A DNA stretch of 64,000 bases from Elusimicrobiota bacterium. GTDB taxonomy: Bacteria; Elusimicrobiota; Elusimicrobia; UBA1565; UBA9628. The stretch covers positions 21,246-85,245 of the forward strand of contig JBIOJO010000002.1 in the NCBI GenBank assembly GCA_044450965.1, in the 5' to 3' direction. How positions within the stretch are numbered: the first letter of the stretch is position 1; every line of letters begins with the position of its first letter. The position numbers and the translations under genes were made by a program. Positions 46,339-57,102 of this stretch are shown piece by piece. The notes beneath the pieces are model-generated. The model did no database searches. It was not told the origin of the DNA and saw only the letters and a list, made by a program, of their open reading frames with translations.

Positions 46339-46413
46339 GGGCCTGTAGCTCAGCTGGGAGAGCGCCTGCATGGCATGCAGGAGGTCAGCGGTTCGATCCC
46401 GCTCAGGTCCACC
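46339..46413 (+). tRNA. tRNA-Ala (anticodon GGC), G3:U70 identity pair, CCA encoded
   Basis: GGGCCTGTAGCTCAGCTGGGAGAGC..., anticodon loop ATGGCAT, T-arm AGCGG-TTCGATC-CCGCT, acceptor 3' CAGGTCC-A-CCA. Confidence 0.85.
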
Positions 46414-46419
46414 AGATTT

Positions 46420-46441
46420 AAAACCCCCGCGAGGGGGTTTT
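46420..46441 (+). terminator. Rho-independent terminator after tRNA-Ala
   Basis: aaaaCCCCCgcgaGGGGGttttt. Confidence 0.6.
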
Positions 46442-46514
46442 TAATTTCAGGGGATCGAACCGCTGAACGACTTTAAAGGCGGTCCGGCCGCGCGTCGTGC
46501 CGCGCGGCCGGGCC

Positions 46515-46541
46515 GCGGTTCGATCCCGCTCAGGTCCACCA
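46515..46541 (+). repeat. 27-nt direct duplicate of the tRNA-Ala 3' end (gcggttcgatcccgctcaggtccacca), 128 bp downstream of the original copy. Att-site-like.
   Basis: Exact match to 46387-46413. Preceded by a perfect 11-bp GC hairpin (ccggccgcgcg-tcgtgc-cgcgcggccgg). An inverted partial T-arm fragment lies at 46448-46466 (ggggatcgaaccgctgaac). Confidence 0.6.
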
Positions 46542-46676
46542 CTTTCGACGCGTTTCTCGACGAGAACCCGGTTCGAGCCTTTCGTTTGGCTTTGACCGGG
46601 TTCTCTGCTTTTGGAGGGGCTATGGTCACAAATTGGTCACAAGCCTTTTTGGCCGGCGCCACAACGAACACAGGCC

Positions 46677-46710
46677 TTGACGCGAGCTGCTACGGGGCTA
46701 CACTCAGGCG
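46677..46710 (+). promoter_or_regulatory. Sigma70-type promoter TTGACG-16-TACACT, then GGAG and ATG 46722
   Basis: ttgacg(46677-46682), tacact(46699-46704), GGAG 46713-46716. Confidence 0.45.
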
Positions 46711-46721
46711 ATGGAGCGGCG

Positions 46722-47942
46722 ATGATGGGGGGCGACACGAAACTTGGCAGGCGGTTGTTCAATTGTCTGCTGGCGATTGCCGGTGTCAGTTTGTCGTCGC
46801 GGGCCGACGCTGCGGCGGCCTCGCCGCTCTTGGTCGACGAGGCCTGCTTTGCGGTCGCTGAGAGCACTCAAGACTGGCTTCCTAGAGAAGGTGGAAAGGG
46901 ATGTAAGACCTCTCCTCACGGGACAGAGCCCGACGACATTTTTTCATTCGAAGAAGGAGCCAACCTCGAGCGGGGCCAAACGTTCTCAAACTTTGGTTCG
47001 ACACTGGCAGTTGTCGAGGTCGCCGACGATATCCTGGTTCTTGTCGATGGAAAAAAAGTTGCCGAGTTCACGGATCCGCACGGCGTAAGGGAGCCGATTC
47101 AGGCCGCGTTTTTCCATGATCGAAGCTGGGTACTTGAGCACGACGGCACCGTTGTGGTCGACGGCCATGACATCGCCAAAGAAAATGGATATCAAGCGGT
47201 CTTCTTCTATCGGTTTCTCGGCGATCGTCCCTTTTTCCTGTTCGTGGATGCCGCCGGAAAATTTGGGATGTCTTTCGATGGCAAGGTTCTCCCATTCCAT
47301 TACGACGCAATACCTTATGGGCTTTGTTGCAGCAATGGCGTATTCAATCCTCGGCGCAGTCCCAGCGCCGCGGTCTTCTTCGGCCTCAGAGGAAAGACAT
47401 GGTATAGCGTGACGGCACGCGCTCGTCTTCCGACACCTGAAGAAACAACGCAAAAGGTTGAGGGGATCGTCAGTTCCCTCGAGTCCGCGCGGAACTGGTT
47501 TACAGTCGAGGTCAACGGCGAGGGTTGGGCGACCACTCTTAGTAGCCACACGATGATGATGCGTTCAGGCCAGAAACCTATCCCAGCCCGCTTCGACTTG
47601 CTTCATCTTGGGCAAAGGGTCAGTACGATCCGGGCGTCGAACGGCGAATTACTGTGTGTCATTTTTCTTGATCCGGTCGCCGATGGAACAGAGAAGGCCA
47701 TGACTTCTGTACTCGCGGAAGTCGTCTCATACTCAGGCTCAAGCGCGGAATTGACCGTACTCACTTGGGGCTCTGTCCGTCAGAGCTACAGCTTCATCAT
47801 CACTCCCGATACCAAGATTTGGCGCTATAAGGGTTTGCCGATAAAGGTTCCGGTCGAGACGCTCGTCCCGGGTGCGCCTGTGACCGTTGAATATGAAGTT
47901 GAAGGATCCAGCCTCGTGGCACGAACAATCGGCGGGAGGTAG
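46722..47942 (+). CDS. Exported hypothetical protein (406 aa) in a lower-GC segment
   Basis: Signal MMGGDTKLGRRLFNCLLAIAGVSLSSRADA. GC is about 55%, against about 68% in the flanks. Runs of A/T are common here and rare elsewhere in the window. Confidence 0.55.
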   Translation: MMGGDTKLGRRLFNCLLAIAGVSLSSRADAAAASPLLVDEACFAVAESTQDWLPREGGKGCKTSPHGTEPDDIFSFEEGANLERGQTFSNFGSTLAVVEVADDILVLVDGKKVAEFTDPHGVREPIQAAFFHDRSWVLEHDGTVVVDGHDIAKENGYQAVFFYRFLGDRPFFLFVDAAGKFGMSFDGKVLPFHYDAIPYGLCCSNGVFNPRRSPSAAVFFGLRGKTWYSVTARARLPTPEETTQKVEGIVSSLESARNWFTVEVNGEGWATTLSSHTMMMRSGQKPIPARFDLLHLGQRVSTIRASNGELLCVIFLDPVADGTEKAMTSVLAEVVSYSGSSAELTVLTWGSVRQSYSFIITPDTKIWRYKGLPIKVPVETLVPGAPVTVEYEVEGSSLVARTIGGR

Positions 47943-48043
47943 CTCCACTGTCCGAACTCGGCTTCGCTGGTGATTCCCATTGGCCACTATCCGCTAATAG
48001 CAGCTGACGCTACTAGCGATGGTAAAGAACCGTTTCACCGGCC

Positions 48044-49276
48044 CTACAAGCCGGCGAGCATCGTCCACGGAAGAGCGACGATCTTCGTGCCCATCCGAGC
48101 CACCTTTCGGCCGGTATGGACGAGAACGCCCGCGCTCGCCTCGGGGTGGTCCTTGAGGAACGCCTCGAGGCCTCCGCAGTCGGCGTAGCTGGGGGAGTCG
48201 GTCAGCTTGACCTCGACGGCGATGATCTTGCGGCCCCACTCCAACACCAGGTCGACTTCGCTGCCTTTCATGGTGCGCCAATAGTAGAGGCGGAGTTTCG
48301 GCGTGAAGGTCCCGGCGAGAGCCTTCAAGTGATGGAAGATCAGGTTCTCGAAGAGCGGGCCCGTTTCCCGTGAGGCTTTGATCGAAGCCTCGTCGTGCAA
48401 GCCGCCGAGATAGGCTGCCAGAGCCGGATCGATCCAATGAAGCTTGGGAGCCTTGATCAATCGCGTGGTCCGGTTGCGAGCGAACGCGGGGAGTCGGTCG
48501 ATGAGACAGGTCGTCTCAAGGAGGTTCAGGTATCGGTGCACCGTCGCCTGGGAAACGTGGGAGTCGCGGGCGACATTGGTCTGATTGACCACCTGCCCGC
48601 AGCGAAGGGCCAGCACTTCCTTGACCGTGCGGAAGTCGGACAAGGATTCGACCTGCGAGAGTTGCCTGAGGTCGCGTTCAAGATACGTCGCCGAGTAGCC
48701 TTCCCACCAGCGCGTCCGGCTCTCCGCCGTGGGCAAGGAGAGCAGGCCGGGCATGAAGCCCCGCGCGATCGCGGAAATGGGGTCCTGTGCATGCGCCGCG
48801 AGCGTCTCGTCGCGGGGGAACTCCCCTTCGAAGATCGCCTGGACGACAGACGGAGCATTCTTGCGCTGAACCTCGCCGGCCGTCATGGGAAGGAGCGTCA
48901 AGTAGACGGCGCGTCCCGCCAGGCTTTCGGAGACATGCTTCATCAAAAGGAGATTCGCGGAGCCCGACAGGACGAAGTGCATCTTACGCGGATGCTCGTC
49001 CACGGCCTGCTTGACCGCGGAAAGAATGGCGGGAAGGCGCTGGACCTCATCCAGAATCACGTGATCCGCGCCCGCCCAAAGGCCGGCGGGGTCGCGCTCG
49101 CCCTGCCGCAATGCATCCAGGTTGTCGAGGGTGACGTACTTCCAGCGCTTGGTCGGCTCTTCATGCCGGAGGAGGGTGCTCTTGCCCACCTGGCGCGCTC
49201 CGGTGAGGACCACGACCGGGTGTTCGGCGACGGCTCGCGCGAACTGAGGGGCTAGCCAACGGGGGAGAAAATTCAA
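48044..49276 (-). CDS. AAA-family ATPase with a C-terminal DUF4143 domain (ATPase family common in mobile/accessory regions). TTG start proposed.
   Basis: Walker A VVVLTGARQVGKSTLL, Walker B HVILDEVQ. The C-terminal region is typical of the AAA_14 + DUF4143 architecture. The track ORF extends a further 59 codons into an AT-rich promoter region, so the start was trimmed to TTG 49276. Confidence 0.7.
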   Translation of the reverse strand: MNFLPRWLAPQFARAVAEHPVVVLTGARQVGKSTLLRHEEPTKRWKYVTLDNLDALRQGERDPAGLWAGADHVILDEVQRLPAILSAVKQAVDEHPRKMHFVLSGSANLLLMKHVSESLAGRAVYLTLLPMTAGEVQRKNAPSVVQAIFEGEFPRDETLAAHAQDPISAIARGFMPGLLSLPTAESRTRWWEGYSATYLERDLRQLSQVESLSDFRTVKEVLALRCGQVVNQTNVARDSHVSQATVHRYLNLLETTCLIDRLPAFARNRTTRLIKAPKLHWIDPALAAYLGGLHDEASIKASRETGPLFENLIFHHLKALAGTFTPKLRLYYWRTMKGSEVDLVLEWGRKIIAVEVKLTDSPSYADCGGLEAFLKDHPEASAGVLVHTGRKVARMGTKIVALPWTMLAGL

Positions 49277-49440
49277 TTCTTTGTCTGAATCGTTATTATT
49301 CACTATCTGAATTATAAGTCGCAACTGTCCAATTTGCAAGACCTCTGAGGAAACGTCGGGCGGGGTTGGTGACGAAGGCGGTTGAAAGCCCCCGCTGGAG
49401 GAAATCCGACACTTCCGGCGGCTTCCATCGTCTAACGGGC

Positions 49441-49959
49441 ATGAAATCCGCATTGCTCTCCGTCGCCTTGACCGCCGCGCTCTCCGCCTCCGCGGCCGCG
49501 GGCTCCATCCCGAAGTCGAACGTGACGGAGACGCTGGCGTACGCCAGCGCCGAGCAGGCCGCGGTGGAGGCGTTGAAGATCGCGATGCCGCTGAGCGGCA
49601 GCTATGAGAACGGCGGCTTCATCGCCGAACGGGACGGGGAGTATTTCTACTCCGATCCCGTCTCCGCCCACGAAGAGGGACATATCTCCTTCGCCGCCGT
49701 GATACCGGCGGGGGCCCGGCTGGCGGCCATTTATCACACCCATCCCGGCGCTTCCTCCGAATATCTTCTTTTCTCGTCCGACGACGTGAAGGAAGCCCGG
49801 GCCCTGGGCGTGGACTCCTATATCGGGGTGCTGGACGACCATACGGTCCGTCGCTTCGAGCCGGGCCGGACGCCCACGCGGCCGTTCGCGGCGCCGGCGG
49901 AAATGCTTTCCGGCATGGTTTCCGACGGCGTGATCGTCGCGACAGTCGTCAATTTCTAA
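49441..49959 (+). CDS. Exported hypothetical protein (172 aa)
   Basis: Signal MKSALLSVALTAALSASAAAGS. Contains a His-rich YHTHPG segment. Divergent from the ATPase gene across an AT-rich region. Confidence 0.5.
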   Translation: MKSALLSVALTAALSASAAAGSIPKSNVTETLAYASAEQAAVEALKIAMPLSGSYENGGFIAERDGEYFYSDPVSAHEEGHISFAAVIPAGARLAAIYHTHPGASSEYLLFSSDDVKEARALGVDSYIGVLDDHTVRRFEPGRTPTRPFAAPAEMLSGMVSDGVIVATVVNF

Positions 49960-50914: not shown

Positions 50915-56362
<5,448 letters not shown>

Positions 56363-56430
56363 CGCGATACTATGCGCGCCACGGCGGAAATTATCAACGC
56401 CGCGGCTGTCAGGACTGTCAGCGGACGGCG

Positions 56431-57102
56431 TCAGACGATCAGCTGGTAGCCGGCTCTCGTCGTCGAGACGCGGTAGCCTTCGTCGCCCAAGTCCTGGCGA
56501 AGGCGCTGGACCGTCTTCTCGAGGTCGTTCTTCGTGCCTTCGCGGCCCCAGATGTTCTCGACGAGCTCCGGCCACGGCACCTCGGCTTCCCTCTGGATGA
56601 GGTGGAACAGGACTTCGAAGCGCTTCGGCGCCAGGTTGGCGATCATCTTTCCGCCGACCCAGACCGACTTCGATTCCGGCAAAATCCGGAAAACGCCGCG
56701 TGACCACACCGCGAAAGGCGGCTTCGTGCTCCGGCTGGCGAGCAGGCGCTTGATGCGCGGGACCAGCTCCGACGTCTGGATCGGCTTGCGGAGATATTCG
56801 ACCGCTCCGAGGGCCTTGATCTCGCTCTCGAAGAAGTTCGCATCGGCGGGGTAGGCGGTCAAGACGATGATGGGGATGTCGCGCGTGGCCTTGTGCTTCT
56901 TGAGGAGCCTGACGACTTCGACTCCGTTGAGCCCCGGGAGCATCATGTCCAGCAGGATTAGGTCGGGGTTGAGGGAGAGGGCCTTCTCGTGGCCCTCGGG
57001 GCCGGTGAAGGCGTAATGAACCTCGAAGCCCTGATTTCGCAGGACGTGCGAGATCAGATGCTGGAAATCTGGATCGTCTTCGACGCTGAGTATTCTGTGC
57101 AT
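56431..57102 (-). CDS. OmpR-family response regulator (REC + winged-helix DNA-binding domain)
   Basis: [13 protein letters not shown]...[13 protein letters not shown]...LRKPI, then a winged-helix C-terminus ...[25 protein letters not shown]... Confidence 0.8.

Follow-up and report, generated by a model that had tools for sequence, protein, structure and literature searches.

A probable tRNA-linked accessory islet of Elusimicrobiota with two apparently independent single-gene units, an exported-protein gene and a candidate defence ATPase-nuclease

Genomic islets at tRNA genes (Hacker & Kaper; Juhas et al. 2009, PMC2704930) are segments shorter than 10 kb with atypical GC content and codon usage, lying directly downstream of a tRNA gene, not present in related genomes and carrying accessory cargo. 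The segment described here, at 46.65–49.34 kb of a 64-kb window (the whole stretch of DNA analysed), belongs to the same size class and shares the composition, the position and the accessory cargo; the genomes in which neither of its genes was found are distant relatives. It differs in having no mobility gene, in tRNA-derived repeats that do not flank the cargo, and in a cargo made of two units of unlike composition rather than one block.

The tRNA gene itself invites comparison with attL/attR scars and CIMEs of tRNA-targeting tyrosine integrases. Like them, the site has the last 27 bp of the tRNA gene duplicated without a mismatch, together with a short insert and no integrase, and its copy number differs between relatives. 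Unlike them, it shows intervening DNA of 56–100 nt in tandem arrays and a conserved fold, in which the duplicated T-arm and an inverted one base-pair to enclose a variable GC hairpin; no matching attP was found in viral contigs.

A third point of reference is PDC-S01, an ATPase fused to a PD-(D/E)XK domain and the fourth commonest defence candidate, as yet unvalidated (PMC12988326). DUF4143, listed within the PD-(D/E)XK superfamily (PMC3424549), forms this family together with AAA_14 (COG1373). One islet gene matches the family HMM over its full length, with the same domain order and intact catalytic residues. It is solitary, as is typical of such genes, which occupy variable neighbourhoods often rich in mobile elements (IS elements, toxin-antitoxin genes, plasmids); nothing distinguishes this copy from the rest of the family.

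We favor the interpretation (probability about 0.6) that the segment is an ordinary tRNA-linked accessory islet, consisting of two independent single-gene units that are neighbours by chance. In this view, one permissive site, where a conserved synteny block of an uncultured Elusimicrobiota genome ends in tRNA-Ala(GGC), would have received two self-contained converging units: a foreign exported-protein gene and a PDC-S01-type AAA_14/HTH/PD-(D/E)xK ATPase-nuclease. Their adjacency would be an accident of insertion, not a functional pairing. The islet matters little on its own, because it is a routine example of accessory genes gathering at tRNA genes.

The tRNA-Ala site and the left edge of the islet

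The tRNA-Ala gene (46339..46414, plus strand; anticodon GGC, G3:U70) was identified by ARAGORN and is the sole match of the Rfam scan (RF00005, 62.5 bits). An identical 76-mer is present at 18 Elusimicrobiota genome loci. The gene ends a conserved synteny block, photolyase–NUDIX–hypothetical–tRNA-Ala, kept in part or in full at eight Elusimicrobiota loci. Neither islet gene is found at any of the eight, and the genes downstream differ at each, which would fit an accessory status as far as such relatives allow: they are distant (upstream proteins 43–79% identical), so loss of downstream synteny could also reflect ordinary rearrangement instead of insertion. The genome contigs scanned contained no relatives of a 223-aa left-flank protein.

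The tRNA gene is immediately followed by a 127-nt unit (46415..46541, plus strand), an att-like scar or tandem unit not present in the closest relative, L017. It comprises a terminator hairpin (about 46420–46442, plus strand), an inverted 16-mer copy of the tRNA T-arm (46451–46466), a 16-bp GC hairpin (46479–46516) and a perfect 27-nt repeat of the tRNA 3′ terminus (46515–46541, duplicating 46388–46414), and its predicted fold is unusually stable (z −7.4). The 27-mer occurs twice with 27/27 identity and a period of 127 nt (chance expectation 0), and the two copies enclose just 100 bp (46415–46514) with no gene. Because of this att-like duplication, which bounds a foreign segment missing from L017, the site shows evidence of past site-specific recombination. 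The inverted T-arm segment was also considered as a minus-strand tRNA and rejected, as ARAGORN and Rfam find nothing there.

The next 109 bp (46542..46650, plus strand) are ancestral tRNA-distal DNA held in common with L017, where the equivalent block directly follows the tRNA without the 127-nt unit. Aligned by blastn, positions 46515–46650 of the window and 4481–4616 of L017 are 92.6% identical over 136 nt, while the flanking genes reach 66–73%. The block contains a second terminator-like hairpin (46562–46605, plus strand) followed by TGCTTTTG, as well as a tandem TGGTCACAA(A/G) motif (46623–46643, plus strand) that is unique within the window. A small ORF of 80 aa starting at 46622 was rejected as a gene, since only its first ~10 codons are common to L017. 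Homology with L017 stops at ~46650–46653, marking the left edge of variable DNA ~237 nt past the tRNA, a tRNA-adjacent insertion position. Since the L017-like DNA is to the right of the 27-bp repeats, these do not delimit the islet. With both repeats on the left and the distal copy missing, target-derived direct repeats do not flank it: even when as many as 9 of the 27 positions may mismatch, no third, degenerate copy is found, and no repeat of at least 9 nt joins the left edge to either candidate right edge.

Recombinase domains are lacking among the Pfam-scanned genes at 38–61 kb, and querying the window by tblastn with three tyrosine recombinases yielded nothing but a weak false match at 16.4 kb, inside IleRS, in agreement with the earlier note that no recombinase is present; serine recombinases and transposases were covered by the Pfam scans of called ORFs only. 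A scan of limited sensitivity of 58 ORFs downstream of the 18 identical tRNA loci revealed no recombinases either. Altogether, neither a cognate integrase nor an attP-bearing element for the scar was found in the window, in these ORFs or in viral contigs, where the 27-mer matched only complete tRNA-Ala genes within the tRNA arrays of large (jumbo) phages.

In at least four Elusimicrobiota genomes, tRNA-Ala(GGC) precedes units of 83–127 nt that form tandem arrays of variable copy number. The same architecture recurs in L011/L029, L013 and L015 with differing hairpin sequences; the unit pattern gave no matches in viral contigs and, in metagenome contigs, only the known L011 contig. In L013 and L015, small low-GC3 HigBA-like genes lie directly 3′ of the repeats. 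One could speculate, though we think it improbable, that these units constitute a new kind of tRNA-targeted miniature element without an integrase, or a platform for recombination, mobilised in trans and marking a site that draws in single-gene cassettes. If so, the cassettes would be the exported protein and PDC-S01 here and the HigBA-like genes in L013 and L015, and the units would stand apart from the inert scars of classical integration.

Composition of the islet and the exported protein

The earlier note had reported a GC dip here, and sliding-window computation places the GC minimum of the entire window in the same spot: 0.541 for the 1-kb segment at 46.9–47.9 kb (z −4.9), compared with 0.671 ± 0.026 outside. 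All 12 of the lowest-GC 1-kb segments in the 64 kb begin within 46.3–47.4 kb. At 300-nt resolution, GC is 0.51–0.59 across 46.9–48.1 kb versus 0.66–0.78 in the left flank. Past the islet it stays slightly below the window mean until ~50.4 kb, and the right edge is not sharply marked.

Codon usage is likewise not uniform. The exported-protein gene (46722..47942, plus strand; 406 aa) is a compositional outlier: its GC3 is 0.609, whereas 36 genes of the window give 0.886 ± 0.046 (z −6.0), and its CAI-like index stands at z −4.1. The ATPase gene (GC3 0.80, z −1.8) is nearly host-like, and the DUF4329 gene has a GC3 z of −1.0. The strong anomaly is thus confined to the exported-protein gene, and the foreign composition suspected for the segment applies to this gene but not to the ATPase gene. 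The differing composition of the two genes probably reflects different histories. Between their convergent stops lies a spacer of 101 nt (47943..48043), containing neither a strong terminator nor a repeat in common with the left edge.

Upstream of the exported-protein gene, a consensus scan detects a promoter-like site, TTGACG-16-TACACT (46677..46704, plus strand), suggesting that the gene may have its own promoter; with 9/12 positions matched, the earlier wording "near-consensus" was generous. By eye, the predicted N-terminus, MMGGDTKLGRRLFNCLLAIAGVSLSSRADA followed by AAAS, reads as a Sec-type signal spanning approximately residues 1–30. A beta-propeller-blade-like domain follows at ~90–250, with an invariant CC at 202–203, and the C-terminal half (262–406) is unique and beta-rich, its structural model being of low confidence.

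The protein had been described as belonging to no recognisable family. This holds for curated libraries: Pfam, NCBIfam, PADLOC and PHROGs give no match, and neither half searched separately against Pfam yields anything at E up to 5. Homologues above 55% identity were not found, and a word-indexed search with the 406-aa protein returned only itself; a word-indexed search with a 15-sequence profile added one profile member. The domain profile had no sequence matches in the PDB, and Foldseek found nothing in the PDB below E 1e-3. An HMMER scan, by contrast, reveals a widespread domain at roughly residues 100–235, held in common by 628 representative proteins (E down to 2e-39), whose family-invariant residues (E, G, PF..F, CC, F and W) are kept here.

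Elsewhere this domain, for which Pfam has no model, forms the C-terminal part of lipoproteins and of PD40-repeat and zf-HC2 anti-sigma-like proteins. In the 406-aa protein, by contrast, it occupies the N-terminal half, behind a plain signal peptide, and is extended by 140 residues without detectable relatives; the usual CCEP motif of the family is replaced with CCSNG. The protein points to a large extracytoplasmic domain family with an invariant vicinal Cys-Cys, lacking a Pfam model. It would most likely serve as an extracytoplasmic binding or sensing module. We propose that the gene would be a recent, compositionally foreign import, with a Sec-exported product built around a blade-like core of ~150 residues.

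Two homologues are informative as to origin. The closest one, P0122, adjoins three tyrosine recombinases, hinting that the exported-protein gene may have been integrase-borne. The other, P0125 at locus L008, lies in a stretch of low GC on an otherwise GC-rich contig (GC3 0.535 vs 0.84–0.92). An AAA_14 gene is present in neither context.

The ATPase-nuclease and its control region

The second islet gene (48044..49303, minus strand), convergent to the first, encodes a protein of 419 aa starting at GTG 49303, a model supported by homologue lengths of 417–420 aa. Its earlier assignment as an AAA_14/DUF4143 ATPase is confirmed by Pfam (AAA_14, E 3.8e-25; DUF4143, a PD-(D/E)xK nuclease, E 6.9e-40); an HTH match is weak. 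The defence-type character proposed for it also stands: the PADLOC PDC-S01 profile PDLC04790 matches over the full length (E 2.5e-117), residues 2–408 of a 410-aa version aligning with profile positions 10–418 of 422. The Walker A motif GARQVGKST (G35..GKST43), D85-E86, D351 and E364-V-K366 are invariant or nearly so among 25 homologues. In PHROGs, none of the three proteins searched has a match. The protein belongs to an Elusimicrobiota clade, and its gene is 86–87% identical at the DNA level to Elusimicrobiota loci; the PDC-S01 family also occurs on 295 plasmids.

Based on these matches, the gene is a single-gene candidate anti-phage system. Its domain content suggests that the ATPase would activate the nuclease at the C-terminus when it senses foreign nucleic acid.

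A very AT-rich stretch at 49270–49340 had been read as a divergent promoter region. It turns out to be the ATPase gene's own promoter and first ~10 codons, not divergent intergenic DNA. This conserved 5′ control region (49276..49339, minus strand) extends from the −35 box of an invariant sigma70-type promoter through the first codons: TTGCAA (49339–49334), TATAAT (49316–49311), then 7 nt and the GTG. It is overlaid by palindromic half-sites on the minus strand, ATTCA (49312–49308), TGAAT (49302–49298), ATTCA (49290–49286) and GAAT (49279–49276). Codons 2–12 have an AT3 of 0.79, compared with 0.24 in the remaining gene.

DNA homology among six ATPase loci extends exactly from the −35 box to the stop codon. 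The same 5′ layout is observed at the Nitrospirota locus L030, and the TGAAT-N7-ATTCA palindrome is kept in a Thermus pTT27 homologue. Judging by these alignments, the control block travels with the ATPase gene across phyla. The mRNA is apparently leaderless, as the start codon comes 7 nt past the −10 box. The ATTCA/TGAAT dyads over the transcription and translation start form a putative operator, most likely serving autorepression via the HTH of the ATPase itself.

No account of this control block, with its conserved promoter, leaderless-type start and palindromes, was found in the PDC-S01 literature searched. PDC-S01, among the commonest unvalidated defence candidates, appears to travel as a self-contained promoter-operator-ORF cassette, and the TGAAT-N7-ATTCA site, K41 and D351/E364/K366 provide handles on its regulation and activity.

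Homologues of the ATPase with 79–89% identity occupy five other Elusimicrobiota contexts, and one with 57% identity is found in Nitrospirota; they have no neighbour in common. The exported protein is beside none of these six, and tblastx of the ATPase loci against the window detects no further shared gene. Across the seven neighbourhoods, the window included, homology is limited to promoter and ORF, indicating that the ATPase has no obligatory partner.

Origin of the two genes

The earlier suggestion that the exported protein and the ATPase could be paired in a minimal accessory or defence-like module has in its favour only their physical adjacency and the defence-candidate nature of the ATPase. 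It is not supported, because ATPase homologues occur in six contexts without the exported protein; conserved co-occurrence of the two families is absent from the P0125 and P0122 contexts as well. The genes are convergent, each appears to have its own promoter, they differ in composition, and one product would be exported while the other is cytoplasmic; moreover, PDC-S01 by definition consists of one gene. We regard such a module as largely refuted already and its probability as minimal: the islet is not a new two-gene system. A looser link, in which a single integrase-borne island entered at the tRNA-Ala 3′ end and left both genes behind after losing its integrase and distal att, is doubtful but deserves more consideration. 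It would account for the tRNA adjacency, the exact 27-bp duplication, the foreign composition, the recombinase trio next to P0122 and the HigBA-like low-GC3 genes right after the same tRNA repeats in related genomes. The decayed island originally proposed thus retains its foreign DNA at a tRNA with a repeated 3′ end, but not repeats that flank the islet. They are 127 nt apart with no gene between them, and the 109 nt past the second one are present in islet-less L017, so that the islet begins beyond both. A third repeat or a repeat joining the putative edges is missing, as is a recombinase at 38–61 kb; GC3 of the two genes is far apart (0.61 vs 0.80), and the ATPase falls in an Elusimicrobiota clade.

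Two independent units therefore remain our preferred explanation, and two further alternatives concern the low-GC gene alone. It could be native, with a composition dictated by functional or expression constraint or by age rather than horizontal transfer, and the low GC of P0125 in L008 would agree with an intrinsically AT-biased family. We consider this unlikely: repeated transfer explains the L008 case equally well, amino-acid content does not account for deviations of 4–6 sd in GC3 and codon adaptation, and the gene is missing from all syntenic relatives. Finally, as the source is a MAG, the 1.4-kb low-GC stretch might be a chimeric join introduced during assembly or binning, which seems very improbable. 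The stretch lies in the interior of a 132-kb contig, has Elusimicrobiota-type DNA on both sides (the L017-like tRNA block and the ATPase gene with 86–87% DNA identity), and holds a single uninterrupted ORF of 406 codons that encodes a genuine homologous domain.

The PDC-S01 ATPase and its control region

The islet, a variable segment at ~46.65–49.34 kb, carries a 406-codon ORF for an exported protein (46722–47942, +) and, convergent on it, the ORF of a 419-aa ATPase (48044–49303, −). Its interest lies mostly in the cassette-level regulatory block of this PDC-S01 gene and in structured repeats of the tRNA end. The ATPase matches AAA_14 and DUF4143 in Pfam and, end to end, the PADLOC PDC-S01 profile PDLC04790 (E 2.5e-117), bearing out the family type proposed in the earlier note. 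PDC-S01, in which an ATPase is joined to a PD-(D/E)XK domain, is a "putative defence candidate" from guilt-by-embedding and is reported to rank fourth in frequency among prokaryotic defence systems and candidates; most such candidates still await experimental validation (PMC12988326). DUF4143/COG1373 belongs to the PD-(D/E)XK superfamily (PMC3424549). The Walker A motif G35-x-RQ-x-GKST43, D85/E86, D351 and E364-x-K366, invariant or nearly so in 25 homologues, are all kept here, and the protein is a regular PDC-S01 member. On the evidence of 417–420-aa homologues and the DNA alignment, its start is GTG 49303 rather than the first in-frame ATG or a TTG.

The nearest relatives are 75–91% identical, and those with a named source are annotated as Elusimicrobia, many of the closest matches being unnamed; below them lies a gap to ~60% identity and many other phyla. 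Homologues sit beside transketolase (L001), XFP phosphoketolase (L002/L003), a hypothetical protein and an NTPase (L004/L005), an rve transposase and a second AAA_14 gene (L006), TatA (L007) and, in Nitrospirota, VapBC (L030). No conserved neighbour, tRNA or exported-protein relative occurs in any of these six other contexts, which speaks against the exported protein and the ATPase forming a two-gene module. The family is found on 295 PLSDB plasmids (168 conjugative or mobilisable), and the Thermus pTT27 copy is flanked by IS110 and IS1634 transposases. The Thermus AAA_14/DUF4143 gene TT_P0211, which may be the pTT27 copy or another one, is reported to be induced 6.6-fold with plasmid DNA present (PMC4406477).

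Nucleotide homology among the ATPase loci begins exactly at the −35 hexamer and ends at the stop codon (alignment of six loci). The −35 box TTGCAA (49339–49334, −) is separated by a 17-nt spacer from the −10 box TATAAT (49316–49311, −), which lies 7 nt before the GTG. The AT-rich stretch formerly read as a divergent promoter is thus the ATPase's own −35/−10 pair, start and first codons. Seven loci, the Nitrospirota one at 57% protein identity among them, have TATAAT and the 7-nt gap to GTG/ATG without variation. Since 7 nt leaves no space for a Shine-Dalgarno sequence, the transcript would be leaderless. The control region (49276–49339, −) has its counterparts at L001, L002, L004, L006, L007, L030 and L041.

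Half-sites of the pattern ATTCA-N5-TGAAT-N7-ATTCA-N6-GAAT overlap the −10 box, the start and codons 2–9, throughout which AAT, TCA and GAA are used; AT3 is 0.79 in codons 2–12 versus 0.24 in the rest of the gene. The TGAAT-N7-ATTCA palindrome is kept in the Thermus homologue, though the annotated start there lies downstream of it, and this persistence favours a constraint on the DNA or RNA over a coding constraint. The palindromes and TATAAT layout are kept from Elusimicrobiota to Nitrospirota and partly to Thermus. The ATPase has a weak HTH_IclR match (residues 227–254), and the most economical reading would be autorepression via its own HTH.

The exported protein and the GC dip

GC falls to 0.51–0.59 in 300-nt windows across 46.9–48.1 kb. 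Ranked by GC over the full 64 kb, the bottom 12 windows of 1 kb begin at 46.3–47.4 kb, with a minimum of 0.541 versus 0.671 ± 0.026 elsewhere in the window (z −4.9), so the reported dip is real, and it is the strongest in the 64 kb. Compared with 36 window genes having a coding-like GC1/2/3 pattern (GC3 0.886 ± 0.046), the exported-protein gene is strongly deviant (GC 0.555, GC3 0.609, GC3 z −6.0, CAI-like z −4.1). The ATPase gene lies at the lower end of the host range (0.631, 0.805, −1.8, −1.4), and the neighbouring DUF4329 gene deviates still less (0.655, 0.838, −1.0, −0.6). In composition, then, the island comes down essentially to a single gene: foreign composition holds for the exported-protein gene but not for the ATPase. 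At other loci the GC of the ATPase gene roughly follows that of its host (0.567 where the contig is 51% GC, 0.652 where it is 68%), a pattern suggesting that the gene has long resided in these lineages.

Searches of Pfam, NCBIfam, PADLOC and PHROGs gave no hit for the exported protein, and in a 5.8-billion-protein index it matches only itself, recorded for an Elusimicrobiota MAG and annotated as hypothetical. To this extent "no recognisable family" was correct; among 1.8 billion cluster representatives, however, a full HMMER scan picked up 628 proteins (E ≤ 1e-3). Almost all of them align to residues ~100–235, the best (P0122) covers residues 37–261 at 38% identity, and residues 266–406 had zero matches in that scan. 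The common domain, covered by no Pfam model, is usually C-terminal in other proteins, following a lipoprotein or plain signal peptide, PD40 repeats or an N-terminal zf-HC2, an anti-sigma-type zinc finger. E139, G148, P170, F171, F174, C202, C203, F219 and W227 are invariant in its alignment. The protein is thus real and, by a signal peptide read directly from the sequence and found likewise in homologues, predicted to be exported. It bears a partial-propeller-like extracytoplasmic domain. The domain family that it joins as a new, divergent member is unnamed, and the architectures in which the domain occurs suggest binding or sensing as its role.

Directly beside the closest homologue, P0122, lies a run of three tyrosine recombinase genes, recombinase-in-trio-like (L009, 2264–5455). 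Another homologue, P0125, occupies a low-GC stretch of an otherwise high-GC contig (L008, 4800–6430; GC3 0.535 versus 0.84–0.92). These two cases hint at, and do not prove, mobility of the gene family. Four near-perfect palindromes of the type GTGCCAATTTGGCAC precede P0125.

The tRNA-Ala site

The 27-nt 3′ end of tRNA-Ala(GGC) (46339–46414) is repeated exactly at 46515–46541 (chance expectation 0), with an inverted 16-nt copy of the T-arm between the two copies. Searched for in one genome per species, the identical 76-nt tRNA turned up at 18 Elusimicrobiota loci, eight of which keep, wholly or partly, the upstream photolyase–NUDIX–hypothetical–tRNA block. Downstream genes differ in all eight, and none carries the exported protein, the ATPase or the DUF4329 protein; the segment is thus absent from these relatives, which are distant.

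In the closest relative, L017, a homologue of 46542–46650 directly follows the tRNA. Over 136 nt, the 27-mer included, L017 and the window are 92.6% identical, versus 66–73% for neighbouring genes, and L017 then diverges into SRPBCC, MarR and HtpX genes absent from the window. By this alignment, the 127 nt at 46415–46541 are an insertion or duplication relative to L017, and variable DNA starts at ~46651, right of both repeats, which therefore do not bracket the islet. The window holds no further copy of the 27-mer, and the candidate islet edges have no repeat in common. Among the genes scanned at 38–61 kb there is no recombinase, as had been claimed: phosphoglycerate kinase, an ankyrin protein, a periplasmic binding protein, photolyase, NUDIX and a hypothetical protein lie to the left, and the secreted DUF4329 protein, response regulators, a 1930-aa HAMP-array hybrid kinase and further kinases to the right.

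The site is clearly a synteny breakpoint with site-specific-type recombination in its past, and the present cargo is not attributable to a single integrase-mediated event. Ordinary rearrangement instead of insertion at the tRNA is possible because the relatives used are distant. Like genomic islets (PMC2704930), the segment is small, compositionally atypical and tRNA-adjacent, and the distant relatives compared lack it; it differs from such islets in its lack of flanking repeats and an integrase.

Three further genomes carry comparable units, in tandem, behind this tRNA: two identical 127-nt units in L011/L029, two 83-nt units and one decayed in L013, and one unit plus one decayed in L015. Each has an inverted T-arm at its start and an exact copy of the tRNA 3′ 27-mer at its end, and copy number varies between close relatives. 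All fold alike (z −3.2 to −5.2) into a long stem, the inverted T-arm pairing with the duplicated one over 10–13 bp around a GC-rich hairpin whose sequence differs from genome to genome. The window's first terminator resembles the native one of L011, L027 and L028, and its second that of L017. No integrase, attP or viral counterpart of the units was found, and we regard them as att-like scars able to amplify by unequal exchange. The L013 and L015 arrays are followed by low-GC3 HigB/HigA-like toxin–antitoxin genes (L013 1180–2051; L015, tRNA-oriented, 373–945); these make up the second case of a very small islet at this tRNA that lacks an integrase.

The DUF4329 protein (172 aa, secreted, 49441–49959, +) probably lies outside the islet, since its composition is host-like; it has a JAB/MPN-like motif HTHPGASSEYLLFSSDD fitting HxHx7Sx2D and a weak Prok-JAB match. 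The hybrid histidine kinase (1930 aa, 50915–56707, −), with a long HAMP/HAMP_2 array, GAF, HisKA-HATPase and several receiver domains, has stand-alone response regulators on both sides. Just past the tRNA terminator, the tandem motif TGGTCACAAA/TGGTCACAAG (46623–46643), also kept in L017, may be a protein-binding site; its 109-nt block is ~91% conserved versus 66–73% for neighbouring genes.
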